From Nitrosopumilaceae archaeon (GTDB taxonomy: Archaea > Thermoproteota > Nitrososphaeria > Nitrososphaerales > Nitrosopumilaceae), in NCBI GenBank assembly GCA_965200155.1, contig CBDATR010000031.1:11321-43320 (forward strand): DNA of 32,000 nt, in the 5' to 3' direction. Within the stretch, counting starts at the first letter, position 1, and every line of letters begins with the position of its first letter. This document shows positions 1 through 32,000 of this stretch, piece by piece. A program made the translations under genes and the position numbers. A model generated the notes under the pieces. That model was given only the letters and a program-made list of their open reading frames with translations, had not been told where the DNA came from and did not search any database.

Positions 1-84
1 TCACCTGTGTCTAAATTTACGCACAACTGATCGCGACAGTTAATGTAATTTGTGTATAAGATTCCGGAAGACGTGAACTCATAC
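1..84 (-). mobile_element. MITE-1 copy, cut by the window edge (orientation B)
   Basis: Matches the 92-bp consensus gtatgagttcacgtcttccggaatcttgtgcacaaatcacattaactgtcgcgatcagttgtgcgtaaatttagacacaggtgaactcatac in reverse complement. It ends with gtgaactcatac at 73-84. For all MITE-1 features, '+' means the consensus as written lies on the + strand. Confidence 0.9.
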
Positions 85-5959: not shown

Positions 5960-6122
5960 TAGACCTTATGCGCATGATTGACAGTAACAGCCCATGTTGC
6001 TTCAAACTGGGGTGTATTTTATTGCACACAATCAGTCAAGCATGAACAATGTGAATGGTACCTGCCAGCACTAACGTATGCCGTGATTACAAATGCCGTG
6101 CAGTGAGGCGACCGGATCTTGG
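5960..6122 (-). mobile_element. IS-A 3'-terminal fragment (about 163 bp)
   Basis: tagaccttatgcgcatgattgacagtaacagcccatgttgcttcaaactgggg... matches 25897-26060 and the reverse complement of 29290-29457 and 29640-29812. It is cut off at the MITE-2 copy beginning at 6124. Confidence 0.8.
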
Positions 6123-6123
6123 T

Positions 6124-6265
6124 GTAACAGTTTAGGTCACTCCTAGACAACCGCTCAAAATACACCGCGAACATATCCATTCTTGCCTTTTCTATCATAA
6201 TGTCTCACATATGCCCCCGTATTTATCGTCTAGATGTCTGATTTTTACGCGACCTAAACGGTTAC
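6124..6265 (+). mobile_element. MITE-2 copy (142 bp), followed by an extra right-end repeat at 6273-6289
   Basis: Termini are gtaacagtttaggtc ... gacctaaacggttac. The interior aligns with 13039-13164 and, in reverse complement, with 31052-31394. A second gtgacctaaacggttac lies at 6273-6289. Confidence 0.8.
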
Positions 6266-11621: not shown

Positions 11622-12588
11622 TGTAATGTATGAAAAGTCGGTCCGCTAGTCATTGGTATCTCGCTCCATCCATTTTGCATCATTTGCCCTAATTGTCTGG
11701 GTCGCCTTTTTATTCCTGGAGTGGTGTCTCGCCGTTATCTATATCCCGTGAGAAGTGCAACCTTCTCTCATTGTAGTAGTCCACATAATCCCGGAGACTG
11801 TCATAATGCCAAATCTCGTCCTCAATCATTCCATGGAAGCGCTCCAGTTTGCCATTTGTCTGCGGGTGGTATGTCTGGAATTGATTAGTATGATGTCTTG
11901 ATCCAGCAGTTCTTCCTTGAATAGTGTTGGTTTCCAGCTTTTCTTGCCCTTTTATTGTCCTACGAAACACGCGCCGTTATCCGAGATGCAGGGGCGCCGA
12001 ATCGTTTCATTGCCAGTCTCAGTAATAGAGTGGCGTTCTCTGAGGTTGCATGCTCAAATAGTGCCGCTCCGACTATGCACCTGGATGCATCATCTATGAG
12101 ATTCAGTTCCCTGAAGCGCTCATCTTTCATGACATGCCAGTGCCACATTGCATTGGAATATTTACGCTCATAGCGTACCCACTCTGACTTTGCAGGTGAT
12201 GAGACTGTCGTACCGTTCTTTTTCATTATGCGATATACTGCGCGATATGATATATTGTAATTCTGTCTAAGCCTCTTTGCAATACGTACTACTCCGGCGG
12301 GATCCTTGCTGTATGCTTCAGTTACCATTCGTATCTGGGTGGCGGTGATTGGTATCATGGGCCTGCCCATCTTTACTCGAGTCGTTCCCGTCCTCTGGAA
12401 TCGGGCCCACAATCTTCGTACGTGTCTTGTTTCAGGTCTTGAGCTATTTTGGTGGTGGCAACGCCTCTTTTGCGTTGTCTTACTATTGATTCCTCTGTTA
12501 TTCTCTTTACCATAGCCTTTCGTGGCTTGTGCAATCTGAACTACTGTACGCCGGATCCTAAGCGGACTTACTTTTCGTACTATTGACA
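11622..12588 (-). mobile_element. IS481-like (rve integrase) element, copy A
   Basis: Imperfect inverted repeats of about 25 bp: tgtaatgtatgaaaagtcggtccgc at 11622 and tgtcaatagtacgaaaagtaagtccgc (reverse complement) at 12588. About 95% identical to 23314-24366. Confidence 0.8.
11710..12480 (-). pseudogene. IS481-like transposase (HTH + rve), frameshifted with an in-frame stop
   Basis: ORFs 11960-12628 and 11710-11970 carry WHWHVM...LIDDASRCIVG, then SDNGACFVGQ*KGKK and HPQTNGKLERFHGMIEDEIWHY...YYNERRLH in different frames. The 5' extension of the track ORF into 12596-12628 is MITE sequence. Confidence 0.75.
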
Positions 12589-12595
12589 AGGTAAG

Positions 12596-12687
12596 GTATG
12601 AGTTCACGTCTTCCGGAATCTTGTGCACAAATCACATTAACTGTCGCGATCAGTTGTGCGTAAATTTAGACACAGGTGAACTCATAC
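12596..12687 (+). mobile_element. MITE-1 copy with 8-bp TSD aaggtaag
   Basis: Full 92-bp match. aaggtaag occurs at 12588-12595 and 12688-12695, directly abutting the IS481-like end. Confidence 0.95.
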
Positions 12688-13038
12688 AAGGTAAGAGTGA
12701 CCAACAAAAGTCTAATACGCACTCACGGCAAACCGGCCTCTATCAAACTGCTCTAAAGTACGCATACAAAAATAATGGATGTGTGAAACTGTTCGCGCGG
12801 GACGACGTGGGTATTGTCAAAGATGGTGATGTTTTCATTTATGCGGGCACACAATATGCACGTGATAAAAATACTGTCGAATATGGCTGACATAGAGATC
12901 TATTCTGGTCGTAACGCTATCTGCTTAACTATTTAAAAAGTCGATAAACGCATTGCGAACTAAAATGTCGTCATTGTGAGGATACACTACTATCAATAAG
13001 ACACTATATTTCTATATATGTATTGTGTTCGATGTGAT

Positions 13039-13164
13039 GTAACCGTTTAGGTCACCCCTGAATAAAATACACTGCTAACATGCCTGTTCTCGCTTTTTCT
13101 ATCTTACATATGCCCATGAATTTACCATCTGGGTGTTAATCTTTAACGCGACCTAAACGGTTAC
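13039..13164 (+). mobile_element. MITE-2 copy (126 bp)
   Basis: gtaaccgtttaggtc at 13039-13053 and gacctaaacggttac at 13150-13164 form perfect 15-bp inverted repeats. The interior is homologous to 6124-6265. Confidence 0.85.
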
Positions 13165-13214
13165 CTAAAGTCGTGTGCGAATACATTTAACGGGGATACG
13201 CAATATTATAAGTA

Positions 13215-13628
13215 GTGAACGTTAGACGGGTTGGCAATGTCATACTGGCAGTAAAGGATATTGACAAATCCAAGTACTTTTATCATAATCTGATAGGTCT
13301 CCCCGTTCGTATGGAGCGGCGGGCATGGGTTGATCTTGGTACTACCGGAGCACTTCTAAGTCTTCATCCCGCTTCGTTGGCAGCTGAGCACACGGGTGGT
13401 TCCATCGACAATGGCATAACCATAGGTTTCCTTGTTGGTGATGTGAAATCCGCGCTAGAGGAGCTGCGCTCTCAGGGCGTACGCGTATATCGCGAGATAG
13501 TGATAAGAGATGCAGGCAAAAATGCTATTGTATATGACCCTGACGAATACTTGGTATCACTATTTGAACCAAACTTCAAGGACAAAGATCAGCAGACCGG
13601 TGGCTACCACGGTTTTACGCCAGTATAA
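13215..13628 (+). CDS. VOC/glyoxalase-family protein
   Basis: 137 aa with a GTG start. VGNVILAVKDIDKSKYFYHNLIGL and the C-terminal AIVYDPDEYLVSLFE are typical of the glyoxalase / bleomycin-resistance fold. Confidence 0.75.
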   Translation: MNVRRVGNVILAVKDIDKSKYFYHNLIGLPVRMERRAWVDLGTTGALLSLHPASLAAEHTGGSIDNGITIGFLVGDVKSALEELRSQGVRVYREIVIRDAGKNAIVYDPDEYLVSLFEPNFKDKDQQTGGYHGFTPV

Positions 13629-13647
13629 GTAAAATATAATGACATAT

Positions 13648-14037
13648 CTAATTTGAAATCACAGTCTTTGCCTGTCGTACAAGATCCATGTATTGTTGCT
13701 CCTCGGCGTCTATGGTAATTATAAATGATACCTTTCCGCTAGGAATGAGTACTAACTTTACCTTTTCATGACGCAGTAACATGTGTTGCAATTTGCCTAT
13801 ACTATCCTCGGTATCTATGCTGGTGTGAGCTAGTGTGGACATTAAAAAGAAGACATCTCTTGCCTTCTCCTTGTTGAGCAGTGGGCTAGCTCCGGTTCGT
13901 ATGAATCCTGCTAGTGTGCGGCCGTACTTGTTTATGGCGCCCACATATCTTATGCTTTGGGACAGGTTCATTATACTCTTGCATATCTTGCCGGACTCTG
14001 TGACTGTGTGTTTCCATTTCTCCTCACTGTGAGACAT
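13648..14037 (-). CDS. Conserved hypothetical small protein, paralog of 5078-5500
   Basis: 129 aa. Shares the I-R-[FY]-x-G-x-I-N-x-x-G-R core and a similar C-terminal beta-rich segment with the 5078-5500 product. Confidence 0.6.
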   Translation of the reverse strand: MSHSEEKWKHTVTESGKICKSIMNLSQSIRYVGAINKYGRTLAGFIRTGASPLLNKEKARDVFFLMSTLAHTSIDTEDSIGKLQHMLLRHEKVKLVLIPSGKVSFIITIDAEEQQYMDLVRQAKTVISN

Positions 14038-14187
14038 TTGATATATTCTCTCATGTTGGATATTTATGCTGTCTGGATATGCCTGTGAATTTGGCCCGGA
14101 CTTGATGAATATACGGTTTACCGCGAATAAAGATTTGGCGTTGCAATCCTGACCGCCGCGTTTCGTAACACAGAAATATGCTTCTTA

Positions 14188-14577
14188 TTGATTGATGATA
14201 TGGACCCCCACATACTGCAGCATATGCAAAACTTGTATGGACTAAATCCTGATGCTCCACACATGGCACTGGGGTTTCCCCGACTGCCACCCTTGGCACA
14301 CAAGAGGCTTTTGGGCCCGGGCAGCTCCATGACCGAGAGACTGGGCTCGCCCAGGGATGTGGCACGCGCGGATATGGACGGGTTTGCCGAAGAGTTCAGG
14401 GAAAGGACTGCCGCGCTAGTTTCCGGGGACGGGTTCCTGCCTGCCGGCCATCCACTGAGTAACAAAAAGCATCGCCTCCGGGCCCTTGTGGCGGAGAACC
14501 AGCGACTACAACAGGAGAACCAGGATCTCAAGCAAAAACTGGCGGCATCAGAGAAGCGGGATCAATTCTCCAGCTGA
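14188..14577 (+). CDS. Hypothetical protein with a C-terminal coiled coil
   Basis: 129 aa. The C-terminus LRALVAENQRLQQENQDLKQKLAASEKR has a heptad pattern. The competing minus-strand ORFs (14051-14365, 14118-14531) have Ser/Arg/Cys-rich antisense-like composition. Confidence 0.45.
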   Translation: MIDDMDPHILQHMQNLYGLNPDAPHMALGFPRLPPLAHKRLLGPGSSMTERLGSPRDVARADMDGFAEEFRERTAALVSGDGFLPAGHPLSNKKHRLRALVAENQRLQQENQDLKQKLAASEKRDQFSS

Positions 14578-14777
14578 GCCAGCAGTCTGACTATTATACG
14601 CGAATTCTCTCGGCGCTGTTTCCGTATATCTTCTATCTTGTGCTTATCCCGGCCTGCCATTACCAGTGAAAAATACTCCTCGTCCAGCGTACTGTTCTCG
14701 CTATACCTTTTGATAATCTCGAATAGAACCCCGATCAGCTGATTCTGCGCCTGTATCAGGTCATCCTTCTCACTCAT
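14562..14777 (-). CDS. Small helical hypothetical protein, translationally coupled to the HD-domain gene
   Basis: 71 aa. Its ATG overlaps the stop of the upstream HD gene (ATGA at 14774-14777). Confidence 0.5.
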   Translation of the reverse strand: MSEKDDLIQAQNQLIGVLFEIIKRYSENSTLDEEYFSLVMAGRDKHKIEDIRKQRRENSRIIVRLLAQLEN

Positions 14778-15289
14778 AATCCTGCATCCTGTCCAACACT
14801 CATTACGCGCCTGCCAGTTATGTCTTTTCTGTAGGATTCCATAAATGACTGGAAGTCTTCCGGTTTCATAATGTCCTTGTATCTTTTTGCCTGCAATGCC
14901 ATATCCAGACGATCTGCATCCCTAACAATTGCTGCCTCGGGGCTGTCCTGACGTGCATACTCGCGCCACACACTGGCATATTGCTCCCGCAACGGTTCCG
15001 GTAGGTGGCCCAGTATCTCATCCATGGCCTTTTGCTCCATTTCCCTTTTGCACTCATGTGGCATATGGCCGGGTATTATATCGCCGATTATGGACTCTGC
15101 CAGGTCATGCAGCAGCGCCATCCGAACGGCTTTGCAAACATCAAGGCCCTCCATATCCGCCATAATCATGGATAAAATGGCCGTTCCGTACGAATGTGCC
15201 GCAACAGACTCCGGGTTTTCCACACCGGCATTGAGCCAGCCCTGCCGTGGTACGCCCTTGAGATTAAACGCTGCTTGTATAATGTCCAT
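14774..15289 (-). CDS. HD-domain phosphohydrolase (YfbR/HDDC2-like 5'-deoxynucleotidase family)
   Basis: 171 aa. ESVAAHSY...LLHDLAESIIGDI contains the H...HD...D metal-binding signature. Confidence 0.8.
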   Translation of the reverse strand: MDIIQAAFNLKGVPRQGWLNAGVENPESVAAHSYGTAILSMIMADMEGLDVCKAVRMALLHDLAESIIGDIIPGHMPHECKREMEQKAMDEILGHLPEPLREQYASVWREYARQDSPEAAIVRDADRLDMALQAKRYKDIMKPEDFQSFMESYRKDITGRRVMSVGQDAGL

Positions 15290-15431
15290 CTATAACATTT
15301 TCTTGAAATTGATCAATTATAATGTCTGGCATGAAGTTTGTTGCATAACTGCCCTATTTCCAAATCCTATTACCGCAGGATATGGCTCACACAAATGGGG
15401 TGTTTTATACCACTAAGCGGTAACTTTTCTT

Positions 15432-15854
15432 GTGGAGATAGACCAGCCCCAGGATCCCGATTATGACTCGGTATGCATAAGATATGTGGGCCTTGCGGAT
15501 CCTCATGCTTTGGAGGGGATAAGCATACTTCAGGCCGCCGATGGTAGGGAGTTTCACATGAGAGCCTTCTCCGGCGAGGTGGCGCGCTTCATAGCCAGGT
15601 ATAACGCTGGCGGAGCGGATCCGGTACCCTCCGTATACAGTATGATAGGGGATATCTGCGAGACCAACGGCCTTACGCTGGTCAAGGTGAAAATATACGA
15701 GTCCGGTCAGGCGCTGAGGGCAAACCTGTACTTTACCGGCAAAAAAGACATGATACTGCGCAACTATCGTGCATCGGACGCGCTGGCCATGGCCTCCTAT
15801 ACGGGCGTTCCCATACTGGTACGCAGTAGCCTGCTACAAAGTCTGGATGCCTGA
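15432..15854 (+). CDS. Bifunctional nuclease (DUF151/BFN) family protein
   Basis: 140 aa with a GTG start. VKIYESGQALRANLYF and RASDALAMASYTGVPILV match the BFN-family core. Confidence 0.7.
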   Translation: MEIDQPQDPDYDSVCIRYVGLADPHALEGISILQAADGREFHMRAFSGEVARFIARYNAGGADPVPSVYSMIGDICETNGLTLVKVKIYESGQALRANLYFTGKKDMILRNYRASDALAMASYTGVPILVRSSLLQSLDA

Positions 15855-15985
15855 TGGTATGAGTTTGTGTCTTAATCATATGTACTAATAATTCCAATCC
15901 GTCGTGGATAAAATTGGACACACGTGAATTCTTCTGATTAATCCAAAACTCCACGTTTATTAGGCCCATCATATCGCGTGTTCTA

Positions 15986-17236
15986 GTGCGAACCATACTA
16001 GTCGTGGTTGCGGTGGCCTTGTCGGTTGCCATCGCGGGTATTATCACATTTGGGGGCCAGCCCGCTAATGTTGCCCAGTCCGGGGATGATACAATTCCGC
16101 CTACCCGCACCATACTCATAGGCTCCCTGCATCCATTGACCGGTTCTTTAAGCACACTGGGAGTGGAGACCATTCATGCCACGGAGCTGGCCGTACATGA
16201 CTTTAACCAGTACCTGGAGGAGCAGGGAGAAGACTGGAGGATGAGTCTCATAAGCGAGGACACCGCTACCACCCCTGCGGTCGCCCTAGACAAGCTGCAG
16301 ACCCTGCATTCCAGGGGCATCGATATAGTGATAGGGCCGGTTACCAGCGCCAATATACAGAACACAAAGGGGTACGCGGATGCCAACGATATCATAATGT
16401 TTAGCTGCTGCTCTTCCTCCTCTGCCCTAGCCATACCGGATGACAACATATTCCGTATCTCGCTGGACAACAAGAAGCACGGCGTCGCCATGGGCAAGAT
16501 AATTCGGGATAATGCCGATGTGCTGATACCGGTCTGGCGAGCAGACTCGTATGGCCAGAGTTTCCGGGATGACACGCTGGAGAACTTTGTAGCTAGGGGT
16601 GGCGTGGCGGACCCCGGAATAAGCTACAATCCTGACACGCATGATTTTAGCGCCGAGATATCCCTGCTGAACGAGAAAGTGGAGATACTGGTAGATCAGT
16701 ATGGCCCGGATAGAGTGGGCATATTATTGGTGGCCTTTGAGGATGCCATTCTGGTATTCCAGGCAGCCTCGCAATATGACATACTGCACGAGGTGCGCTG
16801 GTTTGGCTCCCAGTCCCTTTCCAAATCCCAGGTACTGGCCGAGGATCCAGTCAGCGGAAAATTTGTGGAAGAGGTGGGATTTCTCTCCACTGATGTGGCG
16901 GCAAACAAGGGCCCCAAGTTTGACATGGTTGCCGACTATGTGGCCGAAAAGACCGGTGACACTCCCTCATCATTCATGCACGGTAACTATGACAGCGTAT
17001 GGATGGTGGGCCTGACCATGCTGGATGCCGGTGCCACGGACGCGATGAGTGTCAAGTCCCGCATACCCGACATATCTGCCCAGTATCAGGGCGCCCTGGG
17101 AAACCTGCGACTTAACGATGCCGGTGATCTGGATGTTGATAACCTATCAATAGTATCATTGATGAACGGCACCTGGGTTGATGTGGGCATATATGATGCA
17201 ATAAATGATGACATAATTGGAATGCCGGATCCATAG
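15986..17236 (+). CDS. ABC-transporter substrate-binding protein (branched-chain amino acid / LivK-like, type I periplasmic binding fold)
   Basis: 416 aa with an N-terminal TM/signal anchor. IGSLHPLTGSLSTLGVE...AVHDFN and IVIGPVTSANI are typical of the Peripla_BP_6 family. Confidence 0.75.
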   Translation: MRTILVVVAVALSVAIAGIITFGGQPANVAQSGDDTIPPTRTILIGSLHPLTGSLSTLGVETIHATELAVHDFNQYLEEQGEDWRMSLISEDTATTPAVALDKLQTLHSRGIDIVIGPVTSANIQNTKGYADANDIIMFSCCSSSSALAIPDDNIFRISLDNKKHGVAMGKIIRDNADVLIPVWRADSYGQSFRDDTLENFVARGGVADPGISYNPDTHDFSAEISLLNEKVEILVDQYGPDRVGILLVAFEDAILVFQAASQYDILHEVRWFGSQSLSKSQVLAEDPVSGKFVEEVGFLSTDVAANKGPKFDMVADYVAEKTGDTPSSFMHGNYDSVWMVGLTMLDAGATDAMSVKSRIPDISAQYQGALGNLRLNDAGDLDVDNLSIVSLMNGTWVDVGIYDAINDDIIGMPDP

Positions 17237-17238
17237 TT

Positions 17239-18342
17239 ATGAGATCTGGCATTATCCTGTTATTGTGCATCTGTGCGGGATTATCCTCCGTATATGCCAT
17301 ATCATATCATGATACGAAATGGGGTATTGTGGCAGAACCTGTTCTGACTAACCTGGATATACCGTGGGATGCGGAATTCGCAGATGACACACTATTCTTC
17401 ACCACTCGGCACGGTACCCTGTACGTCCTGGAGAACCAGACCACTAATGTGATATTACAGCTGGATGTGGGCGGCGGCGAGGGCGGCATGCTGGGACTGG
17501 CGCTGCATCCGGACTTTGCCGAGAACAGTCTGCTTTACGTGTACTATACCGGCACAGATAACAGGGTGGTACGATACGTCTACGGGAACGGCACGCTAGT
17601 CCATGACTCCGTAATAATACAGGGAATATCCGCGGCATCAAATCACAATGGCGGCCGGGTAGCCTTTGGCCCCGATGACATGCTATATGTCACTACTGGT
17701 GATGCCGGCAACGCCGCACTCTCACAGGATGTGGCATCATTATCCGGCAAGATACTGCGCATGACTCCTGAGGGGGGTGTCCCCGATGACAACCCGATAC
17801 CTGGCTCGCTGGTATACGCGTACGGTCTTCGCAACCCCCAGGGCATGGCCTGGGATTTTAATGGCACCATGTTCGTGACGGATCATGGCCCATCCGGTTT
17901 TTATGGCCGCGCCCATGACGAGATAAACGCTATAGTACCACAGGGAAACTATGGCTGGCCCCATGCCATAGGATCCGATATTATGCCTGACATGATACCG
18001 CCCCTGATACACTCCGGGCAGGATACATGGGCTCCCTCGGGCATGGCATACGTAAGTAATAGTACCATTCCTTCATGGGATGACAAGATACTGTATGGCG
18101 CCCTGCGCGGCCAGCATATTGGTATAGTATCATTGAATGGGAGCTCATATGACAGGGCATTTGAGGGGGACCTGGGCCGTATACGGCACGTATTCCAGCA
18201 TGATAATGGTACCATATATGCCATAACCAGTAACACTGACGGGCGCGGCTCCCCGTCATCGCATGACGACATGATACTAAGATTGTCTATTGGTCAGGCC
18301 CCGGCATGCAATATGCCATCGTGGCTATCCCTTCTGTGCTAG
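17239..18342 (+). CDS. PQQ-dependent sugar (glucose/sorbosone) dehydrogenase-like beta-propeller protein
   Basis: 367 aa with a signal peptide (LLLCICAGLSSVYA). HNGGRVAFGPDDMLYVTTGD and GLRNPQGMAWD are GSDH-family motifs. It starts 3 nt after the preceding gene. Confidence 0.8.
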   Translation: MRSGIILLLCICAGLSSVYAISYHDTKWGIVAEPVLTNLDIPWDAEFADDTLFFTTRHGTLYVLENQTTNVILQLDVGGGEGGMLGLALHPDFAENSLLYVYYTGTDNRVVRYVYGNGTLVHDSVIIQGISAASNHNGGRVAFGPDDMLYVTTGDAGNAALSQDVASLSGKILRMTPEGGVPDDNPIPGSLVYAYGLRNPQGMAWDFNGTMFVTDHGPSGFYGRAHDEINAIVPQGNYGWPHAIGSDIMPDMIPPLIHSGQDTWAPSGMAYVSNSTIPSWDDKILYGALRGQHIGIVSLNGSSYDRAFEGDLGRIRHVFQHDNGTIYAITSNTDGRGSPSSHDDMILRLSIGQAPACNMPSWLSLLC

Positions 18343-19439
18343 GTGACTATGTCGCCCAACCTGTCCTGTGATGCCGCCTGCCTTATCTCCATGGCTATGC
18401 GGCGTCCCACTCCGAAGGTGCGGCCGTACTGATACTTTGTGTATGGGGTGGTGGTGGCCAGTATGGGATTGCCCGGTACCCGCAGGGACACATCATACAC
18501 TACCATCTCCAAATCCTTGGTTATCACGCTTTGCAGGGAGAACGGGCCTATGATTCCGGGATCAAAGTCATTCCTGGCGGCACTGGCAAACTTGTCTCCC
18601 ATGTCAAATATGGTCTCCAGTAATGACTCCCGTACGGACGCGGGGGTATGGCCCACCTCTATATTCTGCAGCTTTATGTCTATCTGGGCCTGCTGGGCCG
18701 CCGGTAATGCATTATAGTCCATTATGTTGGTCTGCAGCCGCCGCTCAATGCCCATAAAGTCTACCATTCCAGTAAGTGGCGAGACAAAATAGTTGAAATT
18801 CATGTACGTGCCAATTACCAACTCCTCAATGCTGGCCCGCTCCAGGCCTTCGCGGTCTATGGTTCCCTTATCAATGGCATCATGGGATTTTTTCGTGTAA
18901 TCCTGATATGATGATACGGTAAAGAAGGCCCGTTCCAGCTGGCGACTCTTCTCCTGCACCTTTACTATACATGGTCCGTCAATGTCCCTGGGATTCTCAT
19001 ATACCCGTGGCAGCCGCAGGCCTGCCCGCCTCAGCATGTAGTATTGCCCTTTTTCTTCTGAGCGCTCCTCGGCCCGGAAGAGGCGCCTATTTCCGAATAT
19101 GGGTACAGCCAGTTCATCTTCCAGTATGTCATATCCAAGGTATACTGCCAGTGACCTGTGGGGGACCAGTATGCACTGAGTGTCGGTCATGTATTTTTGC
19201 TCCTCCACTGTTGCCATGTCTTGGAATCGCTCAAGTACGCGTATCTCGTCTGCTATGCGGGAGAATCGCCGGTATGGTGTCTGGCGGCTCTTTTGGCAGT
19301 ATATTGAGGTCTGAAAATTCTCGTCCTTGGCGCCGTCCGCTATCTCTAAAGCCGAGTGGCTTCCCAGAACGGCTATCCGGGGATTGTCATATGGTGCTGC
19401 AATATTTGCCATTTCGTTGCGCCTTATCATTGGTATCAT
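18339..19439 (-). CDS. purP: 5-formaminoimidazole-4-carboxamide ribonucleotide (FAICAR) synthetase PurP
   Basis: 366 aa. IAVLGSHSALEIADGAKDENF...Y and an ATP-grasp C-terminal half. PurP is an archaeal-type purine enzyme. An alternative start, MANIAAPY, lies at 19409. Confidence 0.85.
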   Translation of the reverse strand: MIPMIRRNEMANIAAPYDNPRIAVLGSHSALEIADGAKDENFQTSIYCQKSRQTPYRRFSRIADEIRVLERFQDMATVEEQKYMTDTQCILVPHRSLAVYLGYDILEDELAVPIFGNRRLFRAEERSEEKGQYYMLRRAGLRLPRVYENPRDIDGPCIVKVQEKSRQLERAFFTVSSYQDYTKKSHDAIDKGTIDREGLERASIEELVIGTYMNFNYFVSPLTGMVDFMGIERRLQTNIMDYNALPAAQQAQIDIKLQNIEVGHTPASVRESLLETIFDMGDKFASAARNDFDPGIIGPFSLQSVITKDLEMVVYDVSLRVPGNPILATTTPYTKYQYGRTFGVGRRIAMEIRQAASQDRLGDIVT

Positions 19440-19489
19440 GTGTTATGATGGGGCATAATTTGATATTTTGCATGTGACTTGTTACTTGC

Positions 19490-19581
19490 GTATGAGTTCA
19501 CCTGTGTCTAAATTTACGCACAACTGATCGCGACAGTTAATGTGATTTGTGCACAAGATTCCGGAAGACGTGAACTCATAC
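19490..19581 (-). mobile_element. MITE-1 copy with 8-bp TSD ttacttgc
   Basis: Full 92-bp match. ttacttgc occurs at 19482-19489 and 19582-19589. It lies in the divergent intergenic region between purP and the 19636 ORF. Confidence 0.95.
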
Positions 19582-19942: not shown

Positions 19943-20257
19943 TTGTATCATATGGTAATGGCCGAGATTAGCGTGACTCCGGTGGGTACGGGCCAGACCG
20001 GAGTATCGTTCTATGTTGCCCGGGCCTTGGAGGCAGTATCGAGCATGCCTCATGTACGGTATGAGCTTAACCCCATGGGGACGGTTCTGGAGGCCGATGA
20101 CATAGAACATGTTCTGGATGCCGCCAAGCTTATGGTTACAGTACTGCATAATCTGGGTGTGGCCAGGGTGAGTGTTATAATGAAGATAGACTCCCGGCAG
20201 GACAAGCACGATACCATGTCCGATAAGGTCAAGTCAGTGTACAGGCATATGGGCTAG
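19943..20257 (+). CDS. MTH1187/YkoF-family (DUF77) thiamine-binding-like protein
   Basis: About 100 aa. AEISVTPVGTGQTGVSFYVA...YELNPMGTVLE is the family signature. The start may be at 19952 or 19958. Confidence 0.75.
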   Translation: MYHMVMAEISVTPVGTGQTGVSFYVARALEAVSSMPHVRYELNPMGTVLEADDIEHVLDAAKLMVTVLHNLGVARVSVIMKIDSRQDKHDTMSDKVKSVYRHMG

Positions 20258-21345
20258 AGTTTTTGTATAACGTTGAATTTCGTATCTCTCTGTACGGGTT
20301 CCCTGCTTATCTCGCGCACTATGTCTGCCAGCTCAGTTATGGTGGTGTCTGTGGGCTTGCCTGCTGCCCGGTAAATCTCCTCGGAGAATGCGGTTCCCAC
20401 CAAGTCGTTGCCACCATATGATAGTGATACCTGAGCCAGCTTCTTACCATACGCTACCCAGTATACCGATATGTTGTCCAGTATGCCTGATAGCATTATG
20501 CGGGATACGGCAAGTACCCTCAAGTCGTACATGGCAGAGCACTCCTGAGTGACCAGTCCGTCCTTTTCCAGCTGGGTGTTGTCCAGGCTAAACTTTAGCG
20601 GTATGAACGTGATAAAGCCGCCGGTCTCCTTTTGCAGGTCCCGTATACGTATGAGGTGGTCTATTATGTGGTGGGGCTGTTCAATATGTCCGTATAGCAT
20701 GGTGACATTACTTTGTATGCCCAGCAGGTGTGCCTCCCGTATTGTATCCAGCCACTCCTGGCCGGTGCACTTGCCCCGGACCACCTTGTCCCGTACCTCC
20801 GGGTGAAACAGCTCCGCCCCTCCGCCGGGCATTGTATCCAGGCCCGCCGCTTTGAGTCTGGACAGTATTTCGGTGACGGAATTCTTTGTAAGTTTGGAGA
20901 GGTAGAATATCTCTGCGGCCGTAAATGCCTTGATATTCATGTTGGGATGATTCTTTTTTATTATACGCATCATGTCCTCGTAATAGTCCAGCGGCAGACT
21001 GGGGTGGAACCCGCCCACTATGTGAACTTCTGTAGCGCCCATGCGTTCTGCCATCGATACGTTCTCCTCTATCTGCTGTGGCGTCAGTGTGTATGCGTCC
21101 TCGTCGCCCTTTTTGCGGTAAAAGGCGCACATCTGGCAGCTAGCGGCACAGACGTTGGTATAATTCATGTAGTATGATGAGGTAAAGCTGACACGGTTGC
21201 CTACCTGTCGCTGCCGCACCATGTCTGCAGCAGATCCTAGCATGTGCAAGTCCGCGGACATTAGGTTAATTCCCTCATCATATGACATCTCCTCGCCCTT
21301 GGCTATGCGCTCCCACAACACATCGTGCTCTATAGCCTGTGTCAA
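20254..21345 (-). CDS. Radical SAM enzyme of the MqnC/MqnE/CofH family
   Basis: 363 aa. It has the CxxxCxxC cluster (NVCAASCQMCAF), PGGGAELF, MLYGHIE, GGFITFIPLKF and GGNDLVGT blocks. I cannot tell menaquinone (futalosine) from F420 function by eye. Confidence 0.8.
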   Translation of the reverse strand: MTQAIEHDVLWERIAKGEEMSYDEGINLMSADLHMLGSAADMVRQRQVGNRVSFTSSYYMNYTNVCAASCQMCAFYRKKGDEDAYTLTPQQIEENVSMAERMGATEVHIVGGFHPSLPLDYYEDMMRIIKKNHPNMNIKAFTAAEIFYLSKLTKNSVTEILSRLKAAGLDTMPGGGAELFHPEVRDKVVRGKCTGQEWLDTIREAHLLGIQSNVTMLYGHIEQPHHIIDHLIRIRDLQKETGGFITFIPLKFSLDNTQLEKDGLVTQECSAMYDLRVLAVSRIMLSGILDNISVYWVAYGKKLAQVSLSYGGNDLVGTAFSEEIYRAAGKPTDTTITELADIVREISREPVQRDTKFNVIQKL

Positions 21346-21680: not shown

Positions 21681-21900
21681 GTATGAGTTCACGTGTTTTG
21701 ATCATATGATAAGATTGTAATTGACTTGGTACGACAATATTGCGCTTAAACACCAAGTTTGAAATAGAATCTAATGAGTAGGCGTACAACACAATAATAA
21801 ATGGGAGCAGGAAAACCGGCTGCTCCGGGACACCCTTGCGTCCACCAAGAGGAATCTTGCAGATGTGATGAAACGCGTGAAGGTATTGTAATGATATGGC
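21681..21900 (+). mobile_element. Terminal fragment of a diverged IS66-like element
   Basis: Starts with gtatgagttcacgtgttttgatca, as at the 27981 end. It then carries a diverged, frameshifted N-terminus (MSRR..., EQENRLLRDTLASTKRNLADVMKRVKVL versus ELENKLLQDTLAS...HYKERVRVLE). It is cut off at the MITE-1 copy at 21901. Confidence 0.7.
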
Positions 21901-21992
21901 GTATGAGTTCACCTGTGTCTAAATTTACGCATAACTGATCGCGACAGTTAATGTGATTTGTGCACAAGATTCCGGAAGACGTTAACTCATAC
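21901..21992 (-). mobile_element. MITE-1 copy without TSD (junction copy)
   Basis: 92-bp match with one terminal mismatch (gttaactcatac). The flanks gatatggc and agtggggt differ. It joins the IS66-like fragment to an IS630-like remnant. Confidence 0.9.
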
Positions 21993-22680
21993 AGTGGGGT
22001 TGCTCCAACAAAAAGTCATCCCCCATCCACATGAATTATGTATGAGTTCACCTGTGTCTAAATTTACGTATAACTGATCGCGACAGTTAATGTGATTTGT
22101 GCACAAGATTCCGGAAGACGTGAACTCATACTGAATTATGATTCAATGGAAGACGTGAAAAAATGGAGGCAAGAAATGTCAGAAAAGGTTGCACGTTACA
22201 TAAAGATGGATTATGCCATTGTTACCCAGGATGAATCCCATTTCAAGACCGAGAGATTATCTGCGCGATTCTGGGCCCCTGCAGGCAGGCGCGTACTCAT
22301 GGTATGAACCGGCAGGCGATACTGGTTCTCCATGGCCTGTACCATGATTAATGACGGTAGGGTATTCCTTGATGATTATACGGTCATAGATACAGAGAAT
22401 TTCCTGGATCACATGCATAACAAGGTGGGTAAGATGGTACTATTCGTGGACATGGCACACCTCAAGGAAGGCCAAGGAATTCTTTGCTGATCGGGACATA
22501 ATCGTAATAGAGTATCCGGTTGGACATCCATACCTGAATCCAGTCAAGGAATTCTGTAGCGTACTCAAGAGGGGGATGGATCACTCCCTACGATATTCGG
22601 ATATCAATTACCACAAGTAGGCAGTGTATGATTTCAAAGATGGCCATAAGCTCGATTATGATTTTAACAAATTCTGAAAC
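21993..22680 (+). pseudogene. IS630/Tc1-mariner-like DDE transposase remnant, frameshifted and split by MITE-1
   Basis: AIVTQDESHFKTERLSARFWAPAGRRV, then, in shifted frames, RYWFSMACTMINDGRVF, MVLFVDMA and IIVIEYPVGHPYLNPVKEF. These match the DE...W.P.G / D.A..H / P.SP.LNP.E pattern of IS630-type transposases. Confidence 0.6.
22040..22131 (-). mobile_element. MITE-1 copy with 8-bp TSD tgaattat
   Basis: Full 92-bp match. tgaattat occurs at 22032-22039 and 22132-22139, inside the IS630-like pseudogene. Confidence 0.95.
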
Positions 22681-23285: not shown

Positions 23286-23315
23286 GTATGAGTTCACGTC
23301 TTCCGGAATCTTGTG
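23286..23315 (+). mobile_element. MITE-1 left part (nt 1-28/30), split by the IS481-like insertion
   Basis: gtatgagttcacgtcttccggaatcttgtg, then the IS481-like terminus. The outer 8-mer cgctattt (23278-23285) recurs at 24444-24451 after the right part. Confidence 0.9.
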
Positions 23316-24366
23316 TCAATAGTACGAAAAGTAAGTCCGCTTAGGATCCGGCGTACAGTAGTTCAGATTGCACAAACCACGAAAGGCTATGGTAAAGAGA
23401 ATAACAGAGGAATCAATAGTAAGGCAGCGCAAAAGAGGCGTTGCCGCCACCAAAATGTATGAGTTCACGTCTTCCGGAATCTTATGCACAAATCACATTA
23501 ACTGTCGCGATCAGTTATGCGTAAATTTAGACACAGGTGAACTCATACACCAAAATAGCTCAAGACCTGAAACAAGACACGTACGAAGATTGTTAACCAG
23601 AGAACGGGAACGACTCGAGTAAATATGGGCAGGCCCATGATACCAATCACCGCCACCCAGATACGAATGGTAACTGAAGCATAAAGCAAGGACCCCGCCG
23701 GAGTAGTACGTATTGCAAAGAGGCTTAGACAGAATTACAATATATCGCGCAGTATATCGCATAATGAAAAAGAATGGTACGGCAGGCTCATCACCTGCAA
23801 AGTCAGAGTGGGTACGCTATGAGCGTAAATATTCCAATGCAATGTGGCACTGGCATGTCATGAAAGATGAGCGCTTCAGGGGACTGAATCTCATAGATGA
23901 TGTATCCAGGTGTATAGTCGGAGTGGCACTATTCTAGCATGCAACCTCAGAGAACGCCGCTCTATTACTGAGACTGGCAATGAAACGATTCGGTGCCCCT
24001 GCATCTAGGATAACGGCGCGTGTTTCGTAGGACAATAAAAGGGCAAGAAAAGCTGGAAACCCACACTATTCTAGGAAGAACTGGATCAAGACATCATACT
24101 AATCAATTCCAGACCATACTACCCGCAGACAAATGGCAAACTGGAGCGCTTCCATGGAATGATTGAGGACGAGATATGGCATTATGACAGTCTCCGGGAT
24201 TATGTAGACTACTACAATGAGAGAAGGTTGCACTTCTCACTGGATATAGATAACGGCGAAACACCACTCCAAGAATAAAAAGGCGACCCAGACAATTAGA
24301 GCAAATGATACAAAATGGGTGGAGCGGGATGCCAATGACTAGCGGACCGACTTTTCATACATTACA
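23314..24366 (+). mobile_element. IS481-like element copy B (pseudogenised), inserted into a MITE-1 and itself carrying a MITE-1
   Basis: Same termini as copy A. It is flanked by a 13-15 bp direct repeat of MITE-1 sequence (ttccggaatcttg[tg]). The rve reading frame contains stops and frameshifts and a MITE-1 at 23457. Confidence 0.85.
23457..23548 (+). mobile_element. MITE-1 copy with 8-bp TSD accaaaat
   Basis: Full 92-bp match. accaaaat occurs at 23449-23456 and 23549-23556. The equivalent site in copy A (about 12455) is uninterrupted. Confidence 0.95.
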
Positions 24367-24443
24367 TTCCGGAATCTTGTGCACAAATCACATTAACTGT
24401 CGCGATCAGTTGTGTGTAAATTTAGACACAGGTGAACTCATAC
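24367..24443 (+). mobile_element. MITE-1 right part (nt 16-92) of the copy split by IS481-like copy B
   Basis: ttccggaatcttgtgcacaaatc...gtgaactcatac, followed by cgctattt, which matches the left outer flank. Confidence 0.9.
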
Positions 24444-25785: not shown

Positions 25786-25896
25786 GCATTCGCTTATCGT
25801 GTACAAATCATACCACTGTTGCTAGTAGCAGGGTATATCTTTAGAGATTGGTGAATTTATACAAGACTTGAAGTATGAGTTTATGTCTACATAGAT

Positions 25897-26205
25897 TAGA
25901 CATTATGCGCATGATTGACAGTAACAGCCCATGTTGCTTCAAACTGGGGTGTATTTTATGACACACAATCAGTCAAGCATGAACAATGTGAGTGGCACCT
26001 GCCAGCACTAACGTATGCCATGATTGCAAATGTCGTATAGTGGGGTGACCGGATCTTGACGTATATCATGAGTGAGCTAAATGGTAACCACAAAACCCAT
26101 TAATTTAGTGGATTTTCTGATGAGTAATATTCGAATTATAATATCACGGAAATTATGGGTAGATATTTTTCAAAAATTTCTTGTACCTGTTATGCTTGTG
26201 CATAA
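25897..26205 (-). mobile_element. IS-A 3' end fragment (terminus plus the last roughly 15 codons of the transposase)
   Basis: tagacattatgcgcatgattgacag... through ...KKFLKNIYP* (reverse complement). It ends where the 5' terminus of IS-A copy 2 begins (tagaccgtatgcgcag at 26206). The MITE-1 target site is empty here. Confidence 0.75.
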
Positions 26206-26287
26206 TAGACCGTATGCGCAGAATCACTTCTCCCACCCTGCACCTCTAAACCAAGTTGTTAGATACGAACAATTGACCTAGTATCAT

Positions 26288-27981
26288 GTATGAGTTCACG
26301 TGTTTTGATCACATAATAAGATAGAATGCATCCCAGTTTTTTTTAATTATAACTGCATTCTGGCAGCAACCTCGTTCATAACAGAAAGGCCTTGAGCCCT
26401 CCATGTCTGAACACATGATACAAATGTAGACATGCGGCGCATTGCCCTTTCACCACCCTTTATCTGGCCACTAATCTTGCGGAATACCACTGCGTATCAG
26501 AACCGGTTCCACTGCTCCGCTGGATTGTTGGTGGGCTCTACACTGTCATATTCTAAGAATACGAACATGCCTGGTATGGCCTTATTCAATCCTTTTACCT
26601 TCTTTTGTAGTTCAGTATCATCAACATCACAGTACTGATGCATCTGCTCCTGTCTCAAATGAGTGTCGTAATTGCGCGGACGGCCCGCAGTGATTCAGGG
26701 ATTCCCGTGCGCTCCGGAACAATCCTTTCAGGTCGTTGTCAAGTTTGATCCGGGCGTCCTGAGCACCGGGATCAATATAGAATCCTGCATGTAATGCCTG
26801 GGTATCGCGCAATAAATGCGCCCAACACAACTGGTGCTTCCCACCGTCATCAAACCGGCGGTACACAACGTACCTGTCCGTTACTATCGCTCCCTGGTAA
26901 CCGTTCAGGTATTTGTTCACTACATTTGAACTCCTACTTTTGTCATATATGGACATCATCCACTCTTCGGCTCGCATCCCCCATACCCAGCCACGCCTAC
27001 CCGCCAGTGATATACCAGTTTCGTCCACATGAATGCTGGGTGATTTTATTATATTTTCATGAATTGTTTCCATAAATGATTCACATGCATCGGCGGCCCT
27101 GGCAATTATGTTGTTTACCGCACCCACAGATATATTCAGGCCGAAGAGATCCTTCGAAATTACAGGTATGCGTTTTATTGGAATCTTTTCTGCGCGTAAT
27201 GCAGTGATGGCACCGCATAATTGAACCCCAAAACTACCACTCTTTGGGACGCCAGCTGCTGGGGCCAGTTGTTTTTTGCCGCACTTGCATGCAGCCATTT
27301 CTATCACATGAAGGGTCTCCTCTATTTTGGCGGGTATTAATTCCGTTATGTGTCGTTGTTTCCAACCAATTTTTGTCATTATATTGCCGCACTCACATAT
27401 TGGAGCACACTCAAAGGTGTGGCGCATTACTCTGTCGGGGTTGTGGGAACGGGAAACCCCCTTGTGTCCCTTTTGCGCGCCAGCCTTTTTGGCTGATTTC
27501 GTACTGGCTTCTGTCTGTTGCTTATTATCTCCCTGTTTTCGCTTCTGCTCCTCCTGTTTTCGCTTCTTGTACTGGAGGGATTGAAGGGATGGTGGCGAGT
27601 GAGCATTCTCATAATATCTAAGTCGCGTTGTGAGTACCGCAATTTTCCTGTCTTTTTCTACTAATTCCTCTTTTAATTCACTTACATAATTTCTAATAAT
27701 TTGGAAATCTTGTATATGATTTCGTATTTCTTTTATGGTGTGTGACATATATGCTTCCAATACTCTCACACGTTCCTTGTAATGTGCAAGATCTTTCTTG
27801 TAATCCTCAATATCTTTCTTGATAGACGCAAGGGTATCCTGAAGAAGTTTATTTTCCAGTTCCAATTCCTTATAGGACCGGCGTCTTCTCATTAGATTCT
27901 TATTGCAAATTTGGTATTTAAGTAAAATATTGCCATACCAATCTATATCTTAGTGAATGATCAAAACACGTGAACTCATAC
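26288..27981 (-). mobile_element. IS66-family element copy 2, most complete (1694 bp)
   Basis: 24-bp inverted repeats gtatgagttcacgtgttttgatca at both ends. It contains a single transposase gene. Together with the partial repeat 27982-28485 it is flanked by an 8-bp TSD agtatcat (26280-26287 and 28486-28493). Confidence 0.85.
26627..27892 (-). CDS. IS66-family transposase (421-aa ORF); the C-terminal roughly 95 codons (26347-26626) are out of frame and contain an in-frame TGA, so it is probably non-functional
   Basis: N-terminal coiled coil, a Cys-rich block (CAPICECG...CKCG), HVDETGISLAGRRGWVWG and CWAHLLRD. The downstream FLEYDSVEPTNNPAEQWNRF*YAVVFRKISGQIKG segment lies in another frame. 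Confidence 0.8.
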   Translation of the reverse strand: MRRRRSYKELELENKLLQDTLASIKKDIEDYKKDLAHYKERVRVLEAYMSHTIKEIRNHIQDFQIIRNYVSELKEELVEKDRKIAVLTTRLRYYENAHSPPSLQSLQYKKRKQEEQKRKQGDNKQQTEASTKSAKKAGAQKGHKGVSRSHNPDRVMRHTFECAPICECGNIMTKIGWKQRHITELIPAKIEETLHVIEMAACKCGKKQLAPAAGVPKSGSFGVQLCGAITALRAEKIPIKRIPVISKDLFGLNISVGAVNNIIARAADACESFMETIHENIIKSPSIHVDETGISLAGRRGWVWGMRAEEWMMSIYDKSRSSNVVNKYLNGYQGAIVTDRYVVYRRFDDGGKHQLCWAHLLRDTQALHAGFYIDPGAQDARIKLDNDLKGLFRSARESLNHCGPSAQLRHSFETGADASVL

Positions 27982-28485
27982 CCCCCTTGTGTCCCTTTTG
28001 CGCGCCAGCCTTTTTGGCTGATTTCGTACTGGCTTCTGTCTGTTGCTTATTATCTCCCTGTTTTCGCTTCTGCTCCTCCTGTTTTCGCTTCTTGTACTGG
28101 AGGGATTGAAGGGATGGTGGCGAGTGAGCATTCTCATAATATCTAAGTCGCGTTGTGAGTACCGCAATTTTCCCCTGTTTTTCTTTTAGTTTCTCATTCA
28201 ATTCATTTACATAATACCTAATAATTTGGAAATCTTGTGTGAGATTTCGTATTTCTTTTGTGGTGTGTGACGTATGTGCTTCCAATACTCTCACACGTTC
28301 CTTGTAATGTGCAAGATCTTTCTCGGTAGACGCAAGGGTATCCTGAAGAAGTTTATTTTCCAGTTCCAATTCCTTATAGGACCGGCGTCTTCTCATTAGA
28401 TTCTTATTGCAAATTTGGTATTTAAGTAAAATATTGTCATACCAATCTATATCTTAGTGAATGATCAAAACACGTGAACTCATAC
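27982..28485 (-). mobile_element. Tandem partial duplicate of the IS66-like right end (equivalent to 27457-27981)
   Basis: It restarts at cccccttgtgtccc (27457 in the full copy) and ends with the same terminal repeat at 28462-28485. It encodes a 148-aa N-terminal coiled-coil fragment (ORF 27950-28396) with a 7-aa deletion. Confidence 0.8.
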
Positions 28486-28534
28486 AGTATCATGGGTTTT
28501 CCCACACAGACTCGTGTAAAACAGAAAAGTTAAG

Positions 28535-28626
28535 GTATGAGTTCACGTCTTCCGGAATCTTGTGCACAAATCACATTAACTGTCGCGATCAGTTGTGCGT
28601 AAATTTAGACACAGGTGAACTCATAC
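28535..28626 (+). mobile_element. MITE-1 copy without TSD, bridging a roughly 570-bp deletion in IS-A copy 2
   Basis: Full 92-bp match. The left flank aagttaag corresponds to about 2386 in copy 1 and the right flank agataaag to about 1818 in copy 1. Confidence 0.9.
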
Positions 28627-28628
28627 AG

Positions 28629-29189
28629 ATAAAGACTGACGGGACACATGTACGCGTACAACGTCCTGAAAAAAATCAGGAGGCAATGTACTCTGGTAAA
28701 CAAAAAACCCACACGTATAACGTACAGATAACATCAAACAAGAAAAGACTGATAATTCACGTAAGTGGAGTATATGAGGGAAAAAGACACGATTATGGCA
28801 TATTCAAGAATGATATTCCCCTTGGCGGCAAATGGGACAAGTCCCTAAAAGAATCAACCACGCCACCATCTGATAAGATAACAGTAATAGCAGATGCAGG
28901 ATACCAGGGTATGAAAGACTTCCTACCCGGCGCAAAGGTCATGATTCCATACAGGGGTAGGGAATCACTCACTAAAACTGAAAGGAAATACAACCAATAT
29001 GTATCAAAAAGGCGCATATTAATCGAGAATGTAATTCGAATGCTAAAGGTATATCGTAGATTAAGTCAGGTATATGATGGTAGTCGTGAGGAATTCCGGG
29101 AAGATCTCGTAGTATCTGGGTTGCATAATTTACACATTATGCACAAGCATACCAGGTACAAGAAATTCTTGAAAAATATCTGTCCATAA
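28629..29189 (+). pseudogene. IS-A DDE_Tnp_4 transposase, C-terminal 186 codons only
   Basis: IKTDGTHVRVQRPEKNQ... to ...KKFLKNICP* is about 95% identical to ORF 1265-2062. The N-terminal part of track ORF 28461-29189 is read-through of IS and MITE sequence. Confidence 0.8.
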
Positions 29190-29457
29190 TTTCCGTGTTA
29201 TTATAATTCGAATATTACTCATCAGAAAATCCACTAAATTAATGGGTTTTGTGGTAACCATTTAGCTCACTCATGATATACGTCATCAAGATCCGGTCAC
29301 CCCACTACATGACATTTGCAATCACGGCATACGTTAGTGCTGGCAGGTGCCATTAACATTGTTCATGCTTGACTGATTGTGTGCCATAAAATACACCCCA
29401 GTTTGAAGCAACATGGGCTATTCCTGTCAATCATGCGCATAAGGTCTATTATAATTC

Positions 29458-29812
29458 GGATATTACTCATCAGAAAATCCACTAAATTAATGTATGAGTT
29501 CACGTCTTCCGGAATCTTGTACACAAATCACATTAACTGTCGCGATCAGTTATGCGTAAATTTAGACATAGGTGAACTCATACAAATTAATGGGTTTTGT
29601 GGTAACCATTTAGCTTACTCATGATATACGTCACCAAGATCCGGTCGCCACACTACACGATATTTGCAATCACGGCATACGTTAGTGCTGGCAGATGCCA
29701 TTAACATTGGTTTGTTCATGCTTGACGGATTGTGTGCCATAAAATACACCCCAGTTTGAAGCAACCTAGGCTGTTACTGTCAATCATGCGCATAAGGTCT
29801 ATTGGCCCTAGT
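29458..29812 (+). mobile_element. Second tandem copy of the IS-A 3' tail, containing a MITE-1
   Basis: ttataattcggatattactcatcag ... catgcgcataaggtcta repeats 29204-29457. It differs by the 100-bp MITE-1 plus TSD insertion. Confidence 0.8.
29492..29583 (+). mobile_element. MITE-1 copy with 8-bp TSD aaattaat
   Basis: Full 92-bp match. aaattaat occurs at 29484-29491 and 29584-29591. The empty site ccactaaattaatgggtttt is visible at about 29231-29250. Confidence 0.95.
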
Positions 29813-30171: not shown

Positions 30172-30263
30172 GTATGAGTTCACGTCTTCCGGAATCTTAT
30201 ACACAAATCACATTAACTGTCGCGATCAGTTATGCGTAAATTTAGACACAGGTGAACTCATAC
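30172..30263 (+). mobile_element. MITE-1 copy with 8-bp TSD cagaataa
   Basis: Full 92-bp match. cagaataa occurs at 30164-30171 and 30264-30271. Confidence 0.95.
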
Positions 30264-31073: not shown

Positions 31074-31165
31074 GTATGAGTTCACGTCTTCCGGAATCTT
31101 ATGCACAAATCACATTAACTGTCGCGATCAGTTATGCGTAAATTTAGACACAGGTGAACTCATAC
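31074..31165 (+). mobile_element. MITE-1 copy with 8-bp TSD agcgtaaa
   Basis: Full 92-bp match. agcgtaaa occurs at 31066-31073 and 31166-31173. Confidence 0.95.
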
Positions 31166-31185: not shown

Positions 31186-31277
31186 GTATGAGTTCACGTC
31201 TTCCGGAATCTTATGCACAAATCACATTAACTGTCGCGATCAGTTATGCGTAAATTTAGACACAGGTGAACTCATAC
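31186..31277 (+). mobile_element. MITE-1 copy with 8-bp TSD cagacatc
   Basis: Full 92-bp match. cagacatc occurs at 31178-31185 and 31278-31285, only 20 bp from the previous copy. Confidence 0.95.
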
Positions 31278-31907: not shown

Positions 31908-32000
31908 GTATGAGTTCACGTGTTTTGATCATTCACTAAGATATAGGTAGGAGTTCATATGTAGTGGACAAATACCTGAACGGTTACCAGGGCGCGATAG
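31908..32000 (+). mobile_element. IS66-like element copy 3 with an internal deletion; runs off the window
   Basis: gtatgagttcacgtgttttgatcattcactaagatatag is joined at about 31946 directly to gtaggagttcatatgtagtggacaaatacctgaacgg, which is the mid-transposase sequence found at 474-520 in copy 1. Confidence 0.8.

Follow-up and report, generated by a model that had tools for sequence, protein, structure and literature searches.

A 92-bp miniature element in an archaeal contig and its probable partner, a single-ORF insertion sequence of the IS66 family

Insertion sequences (ISs) of the IS66 family are bounded by terminal inverted repeats (TIRs) of about 15-30 bp that begin GTA(A). Target duplications of 8 bp are made by IS66 itself (PMC6778807; PMC3281130), and ISDge4, a member of the ISBst12 group with a single open reading frame (ORF), transposed with an 8-bp repeat, has the TIRs GTGACTACTCAGCA/GTAACTGCTCAGCA and encodes a 449-aa transposase (PMC12898284). 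Transposases of this family are also known in archaea, with 49 copies in Methanosarcina mazei TMA (bioRxiv 10.1101/2024.09.30.615893; see also PMC13343696), and pairing a MITE (miniature inverted-repeat transposable element) with an IS by common ends and duplication length is a standard approach (PMC9769881; PMC3189936). Here, we propose that MITE-1, a non-coding 92-bp element repeated throughout a 32,000-nucleotide stretch of a Nitrosopumilaceae contig (CBDATR010000031.1, positions 11,321 to 43,320; hereafter the window, within which all coordinates are given), owes its mobility to a single-ORF IS66-family (ISBst12-like) IS in the same genome, whose DDE transposase would move it in trans. From sequence comparison we give this reading a probability of about 0.7. 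Two levels of the claim are best kept apart: the link between MITE-1 and the IS66 family is strong, whereas this particular IS is only the probable partner, since the terminal box that the two share is lineage-wide and the inner part of the repeat differs.

The IS in question is a near full-length, single-ORF element of 1694 bp on the minus strand at 26288-27981, whose left and right inverted repeats (IRL, 26288-26311; IRR, 27958-27981) are perfect over 24 bp (gtatgagttcacgtgttttgatca), with weaker complementarity to about position 36. An earlier note on this DNA, made from the letters alone, had placed 24-bp repeats at these positions, correctly, and had held the first 14 nt of the IS to be identical to the MITE-1 ends. 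The latter is exact for MITE-1 end A (GTATGAGTTCACGTCTTCC, 14/14) and nearly so for end B (GTATGAGTTCACCTGTGTC), which agrees at 13/14 positions, 12 of them contiguous; the outer box common to the IS and MITE-1 is GTATGAGTTCAC. When up to 2 mismatches are allowed, the window contains the terminal 14-mer 36 times, where 0.24 occurrences would be expected by chance, and every occurrence with 0 or 1 mismatch is the end of a MITE-1 or IS66-like copy. The sole two-mismatch occurrence, at 25873, opens an 18-nt stretch (25873-25890, GTATGAGTTTATGTCTAC) that resembles MITE-1 end A at 15/18 positions and lies just outside an IS5-type repeat, and this is probably a truncated, stranded MITE-1 end.

Might the likeness of the ends be coincidental, and MITE-1 be moved instead by the IS5-family element IS-A (DDE_Tnp_4 and HTH_Tnp_4 matches) or by the IS481-like element X, both of which are interleaved with MITE-1 copies across the window? 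The ends of IS-A (ATAGACCTTATGCGCA; ATAGACC(T/G)TATGCGCA) and of X (TCAATAGTACG.../...CATACATTACA) are unrelated to GTATGAGTTCAC, X duplicates 15 bp and not 8 bp, and the likelihood of an exact 14-nt match by chance is negligible. No other transposase family in the window has ends that match MITE-1 better, as the pairing made in the earlier note would predict. Both elements are effectively refuted as partners by their unrelated termini, and X also by the length of its duplication, and we give this explanation next to no weight.

The second line of evidence is the length of the target duplication. The main IS copy is followed directly by the right-end fragment of a second copy (27982-28485, minus strand, 504 bp, ending in an IRR at 28462-28485), and the resulting composite, 26288-28485, has AGTATCAT on either side (26280-26287 and 28486-28493). 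A paralogous minus-strand site at 2395-2473 carries no such insertion: its reverse complement matches both flanks of the composite at 93-98% and contains AGTATCAT once (read as ATGATACT on the plus strand, 2436-2443). Because this paralog is an empty site, the two octamers are a true target duplication rather than a coincidental repeat. The earlier note had described the flanking octamers and the single copy in the paralog, and had concluded that MITE-1 and the IS duplicate the same length of target; both statements are borne out, with an empty site for each element.

How the composite arose can be read from its two right ends. The 504-bp fragment is 92% identical to the right 525 bp of the main element (27457-27981) and is missing 21 bp, which encode IKKDIEDYKK and are likewise absent from the homologues P0125 and P0136; it belongs to a different IS subfamily from that of the 26288-27981 copy. 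A simple tandem duplication was rejected, as the two right ends differ by 8% divergence and the 21-bp indel. Since they belong to different subfamilies, we read the composite as a nested insertion, in which an IS copy of one subfamily would have inserted into a copy of another, followed by recombination between their homologous left parts, through which the duplicated left portion would have been lost.

MITE-1 is present in 15 copies in the window, of which 13 are intact, 1 is cut by the window edge and 1 is split. All 13 intact copies are exactly 92 bp long, with a mean pairwise identity of 97.7%, which points to recent amplification. Perfect direct repeats with a maximal length of exactly 8 bp flank 11 of the 13, as well as the split copy, that is 12 of the 14 assessable insertions. 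On the minus strand these are 1119-1210 (ATTAATTT), 5748-5839 (GTTAGAAT), 19490-19581 (TTACTTGC) and 22040-22131 (TGAATTAT), and on the plus strand 2531-2622 (CCATTTTT), 12596-12687 (AAGGTAAG), 23457-23548 (ACCAAAAT; nested in an IS481-like element), 29492-29583 (AAATTAAT), 30172-30263 (CAGAATAA), 31074-31165 (AGCGTAAA) and 31186-31277 (CAGACATC), together with the split copy at 23286-24443 (CGCTATTT), which is interrupted by the IS481-like element 23316-24366. The copy cut by the start of the window (1-84, minus strand) lies inside an IS66-like copy at 85-1090. The duplicated 8-mers are AT-rich (72%, compared with 53% for the window). MITE-1 also has a verified empty site, because 2 paralogs of the 1119-1210 locus, 26079-26133 and 29199-29263, carry no MITE-1 and a single ATTAATTT each; the copies at 1119-1210 and 29492-29583 are one ancestral insertion that was duplicated together with its host repeat. 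Being short and non-coding, with terminal repeats of 12-14 nt, near-identical copies and target duplications, MITE-1 has the features by which MITEs are recognised, and Rfam and tRNA scans of the window gave no match, so that it is not a known RNA family.

Both of the intact copies that have no duplication stand at rearrangement junctions. The plus-strand copy at 28535-28626 takes the place of 576 bp of an IS5-family element that is kept in the paralog 1819-2394, and the minus-strand copy at 21901-21992 abuts a truncated IS66-like fragment. These copies fit MITE-mediated deletion or recombination.

The third line of evidence is the transposase. Its gene in the main copy (26347-27892, minus strand; conceptual product about 514 aa) is a pseudogene whose reading frame shifts near 26660-26690 and meets an in-frame TGA at 26497-26499, and its 421-aa ORF (26627-27892, minus strand) matches Pfam PF03050 DDE_Tnp_IS66 (E 2e-28) and, weakly, zf-IS66. 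The intact homologue P0134 matches PF03050 with an E value of 7e-38 (131 bits, profile 14-277 of 284) and NCBIfam NF033517 (IS66 family transposase) with 220 bits (profile 1-380 of 387), above the cutoff of 180 bits. The transposase is on these profile matches a member of the IS66 family. In the 1694-bp element there is one transposase frame and no further ORF with a family match, and as there is room for one ORF and none for tnpA/tnpB, the organisation is single-ORF (ISBst12-like), which agrees with the earlier note's description of a single-ORF IS66-type enzyme; the three ORFs that characterise the canonical IS66 group (groups as defined in PMC12898284) are absent. We place the element in the ISBst12-like type by its organisation and profile matches.

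Uninterrupted transposases of the length that the earlier note had expected of a whole copy (about 515 codons) were found by protein search: P0134 has 515 aa and P0125 and P0001 have 508 aa, with at least 91% identity over the full length. All three fall in one 90% cluster family with ORFs of the contig to which the window belongs (63,340 bp, in NCBI and ENA); on it also lies P0135, which does not differ from the window ORF 27950-28396. From sequence sources and contig sizes we infer that the intact 508-515-aa transposases lie in the same assembly as the window. In an alignment with relatives that are 36-40% identical, the acidic residues D290/E291, D339 and E450-E462 are invariant, as are the CxC...CxC zinc-finger cysteines, the CWAH motif and the C-terminal KISGQIKGG motif. 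No solved structure of any transposase relative was found.

A variant of the gene deserves separate mention. At about 26490-26510 and about 985-1000 of the window, and also in P0123, P0130 and P0136, the sequence AEQALR of the intact copies is replaced by AEQWNRF*, with an in-frame TGA, and the variant region contains the palindrome GAACCGGTTC. This subfamily is multi-copy, yet without the conserved C-terminal 47 residues.

In light of the common ends (14/14 and 13/14), the 8-bp duplications of both elements and the intact transposase ORFs that are taken to lie in the same assembly, how might MITE-1 move? Intact IS copies elsewhere in the genome would supply an IS66-type DDE transposase that recognises chiefly the outer terminal box. 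This enzyme would cleave at the GTA ends and join them to a target cut with an 8-bp stagger, and repair would then leave the 8-bp duplications. MITE-1, bounded by two such boxes and coding for nothing, would be moved in trans. What we infer in this scheme is that the outer 12-14 nt are enough, which transposase is the donor and how the element transposes (by cut-and-paste or by copy-and-paste).

Several observations weigh against the proposed partnership. The window copies of the IS that still hold coding sequence are pseudogenes, and they are more diverged (90-92%) than the MITE-1 copies. Just one IS copy in the window retains both ends, and hence this genome provides a single IS duplication. 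Positions 15-24 of the IS repeat (GTTTTGATCA) are unlike both MITE-1 ends (CTTCCGGAAT, TGTGTCTAAA), and the 64-nt core of MITE-1 does not detectably resemble the interior of the IS (local score 13, compared with 11.9 +/- 1.5 for shuffles). End B of MITE-1 matches the IS of P0003, from another organism, over 15 nt, and the GTATGAG heptamer is found throughout the sub-lineage, with the full 12-nt box in one relative, so that the common end does not point to this IS in particular. Since the core is without similarity to the IS interior, MITE-1 is not a simple deletion derivative of this IS. Subterminal similarity, which reflects an origin by internal deletion, is not required for mobilisation.

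The first of these points, along with the premature TGA of the AEQWNRF* type that many copies share, could mean that MITE-1 is an inactive fossil, whose shared ends reflect past activity and which has no functional partner left. Against this, the MITE-1 copies are uniformly 92 bp and nearly identical, their duplications are still perfect, and IS copies as well as other mobile elements have served as their targets. In addition, the uninterrupted 508-515-aa ORFs keep the family-conserved acidic, Cys/His and C-terminal motifs intact. We therefore consider a fossil MITE-1 to be very improbable.

The limited extent of the shared end bears on a different explanation, namely that both the partner and the ancestor of MITE-1 are an unseen sibling of the same IS66 sub-lineage, with full repeats matching MITE-1 (GTATGAGTTCACGTCTTCC... 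or ...CACCTGTG..., ...CACCTGTGTC), the IS in the window sharing just the lineage-wide box. A sibling of this kind would account for the different inner repeat beyond the common 12-14 nt, for the unrelated core, and for the 15-nt match between end B and the IRR of the P0003 type, and the terminal box is indeed kept among transposases that are just 36-40% identical. However, among the top protein hits (at least 36% identity) those that lie on contigs of the sizes seen for the clusters of this IS, and are present in both NCBI and ENA, are only these clusters themselves, the rest of the sub-lineage being from other samples, and a diverged fragment in the window (21681-21891, 75% identical) still has a repeat of the GTTTTGATCA type. 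We judge the unseen sibling to be unlikely, and take the window IS lineage to be the probable donor: the earlier note's proposal that the IS66-like element is the likely autonomous partner of MITE-1 is supported, and is probable for this specific IS.

What can be learned from relatives elsewhere? No close relatives of the IS or of MITE-1 were found in representative-genome, metagenome and viral collections: scans of the genome and metagenome contigs with the transposase gave relatives at 22-31% identity only, and viral contigs contained no match to the ends of MITE-1 or of the IS. In the protein search, the next best transposases after the clusters of this IS have 36-40% identity. The element of P0003 (40% identity) is present as 4 independent insertions beside Sec61-beta and DUF2070 genes, an archaeal context; its termini are GTATGAGTTCACCT (pairwise GTATGAGTTCACCTACCC / GTATGAGTTCACCTGCCC), the full GTATGAGTTCAC box is present, and all 4 duplications are perfect and of 8 bp (GCGGCGGC, CCCGTCAA, GGCAGGCG and GAGGCCGT). 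The element of P0010 (36%), beside a DUF2070 gene, has the termini GTATGAGGTCAGCT and a duplication that agrees at 7/8 positions, while the two P0009 elements on a 3.2-Mb contig (38%) start with GTATGAG, one of them with an 8- or 9-bp repeat. For P0004 (38%), on a GC-rich contig, a match to GTTTGAGTTCAC precedes the gene start by 27 nt, and the opposite end was not recovered. The duplication length in IS66-like relatives is thus in keeping with the one that the earlier note gave for this IS.

Distant single-ORF relatives (22-31% identity) end in GTAACCCCTCACAC, GTAACTGCTCACAG or GTAAGCGTTCACGC, which are similar to the ends published for ISDge4. The repeats of this IS start GTATGAGTTCAC, with T as the fourth base, compared with A in the distant relatives (GTAACCCCTCAC or GTAAGCGTTCAC). 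An automatic search for inverted repeats and duplications at the distant metagenome loci, which are short collapsed contigs, gave repeats of the GTAA type and no clear duplications. As judged from the relatives at 36-40% identity, this IS66 sub-clade is characterised by the GTATGAG heptamer, extended to the full GTATGAGTTCAC box in P0003, the relative that matches most closely, and by the 8-bp duplication, both conserved across the lineage; the latter agrees with the published duplications of IS66 and ISBst12-group elements.

One further MITE-like element was seen outside this genome. On a contig from the Hainich groundwater metagenome (L053), a 121-bp element at 1611-1731 is bounded by GTATCAGTTCACC / GTATGAGTTCACGG and flanked by a perfect 8-bp duplication, CTCGCATT; it adjoins a distant single-ORF IS66 with the repeats GGTAACTGCTCACAGCCCCC, and is followed by another terminus of similar sequence, GTACCAGTTCACC. 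The find suggests that unrelated organisms, too, have MITEs with this terminal box. We raise the tentative idea, to which we give somewhat less than even odds, that the terminal box beginning GTATGAG is the mark of a clade of single-ORF IS66 elements, mainly archaeal and not yet described, that needs little beyond the outer 12 or so nt of its ends and has repeatedly turned short sequences unrelated to it into MITEs in various hosts, MITE-1 and the L053 element being two cases. If true, the clade would offer a minimal-end system for the still poorly understood mechanism of IS66 transposition.

Besides the composite, the window holds 3 IS66-like pieces, each of which the earlier note had listed by one of its ends. 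The terminus that it gave at 1067-1090 is present and is, more precisely, the IRL of a 1006-bp partial copy on the plus strand (85-1090). This copy comprises two thirds of the transposase gene, from the C-terminal side, and shares 90% identity with the main copy; it has many indels and the same premature TGA, and MITE-1 breaks it at 84/85. The terminus at 31908 belongs to an internally deleted derivative (31908-32000, plus strand) that runs off the window, in which the IRR end keeps 39 bp, joined to internal sequence that corresponds to about 26937, some 1 kb further in. The deletion junction falls exactly at an internal GTAGGAGTTCA, similar to the element terminus GTATGAGTTCA, and this could reflect use of a pseudo-end or chance. 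The terminus at 21681 is that of the diverged 75%-identical right-end fragment (21681-21891, plus strand), which comes from a related element of the IS66-like kind, ends in the same 24 nt and adjoins the MITE-1 copy at 21901-21992.

Other mobile elements are densely packed around these copies. The IS481-like element X (23316-24366), identified by rve and HTH matches, has inserted into a MITE-1 copy, duplicating 15 bp (TTCCGGAATCTTGTG), and carries its own nested MITE-1 at 23457-23548. A second IS481-like copy (11622-12588) lies beside the MITE-1 copy at 12596-12687. Pieces of IS-A are nested, inverted and tandemly duplicated (25897-26206, 29136-29450, 29584-29803, 5953-6124 and 1091-2523): an end segment of about 310 bp is inverted between 25897-26206 and 29136-29448, and the segment 29236-29450 is repeated at 29584-29803. 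The host genes include PurP, a TatC with an archaeal-type best hit and CofH/MqnE-family radical SAM genes. This content probably marks the host as an archaeon, with which the archaeal context of the relatives is consistent. The genes at 20254-21345 and 18339-19439 include a radical SAM enzyme of the CofH/MqnE/MqnC family, with best hits to models of the futalosine pathway, and the archaeal formate-dependent PurP, a hint of a menaquinone-making archaeon.

With the present analysis, some 15 repeats and a number of IS fragments can be annotated in a contig of archaeal type that is dense in repeats. A 6857-bp short-read contig in Logan (SRR33960550), equivalent to about 12660-19517 of the window, breaks at both ends exactly inside MITE-1 copies. 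As short-read contigs of the same organism end inside its copies, MITE-1 limits assembly contiguity for this genome. MITE-1 thus explains assembly breaks at its sites and also, because its copies without duplications mark deletions, local rearrangements. The GTATGAG terminal motif combined with the 8-bp duplication should be a useful marker for finding the ends of this IS lineage. The general understanding of MITEs or of IS66 elements is unchanged by the finding.

How does this pair compare with known systems? MITE-1 resembles other prokaryotic MITEs that have been paired with ISs, such as the IS982-related MITE of Cardinium, MITEPsy1 with IS5 and the SM MITEs of Sulfolobus (PMC9769881; PMC3189936), in being a short non-coding element with the TIRs and the duplication length of a resident IS and a high copy number. 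It differs in having an IS66 partner, in a likeness limited to the outer 12-14 nt and in its unrelated core. A full-text literature search, whose coverage was incomplete, found no description of an IS66-derived MITE, and MITE-1 would seem to represent a MITE family not described before, linked to single-ORF IS66 elements.

As for the IS, it has a TnpC-type DDE transposase and an 8-bp duplication in common with canonical IS66 and IS679 (PMC6778807; PMC3281130), which are organised as tnpA-tnpB-tnpC, but it lacks tnpA and tnpB and is about 1.7 kb long, compared with 2.5-2.8 kb. It resembles the ISBst12 group (ISBst12 and ISDge4; PMC12898284), with a single IS66 DDE ORF, no tnpA/tnpB, a length of about 1.5-1.7 kb, repeats that start with GTA and contain ...TCAC, and an 8-bp duplication. 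Unlike that group, this IS starts with GTATGAG and not GTAA, and its nearest relatives outside the genome are 36-40% identical; relative to ISDge4, its transposase is longer (508-515 aa compared with 449 aa) and bears an N-terminal coiled-coil extension.

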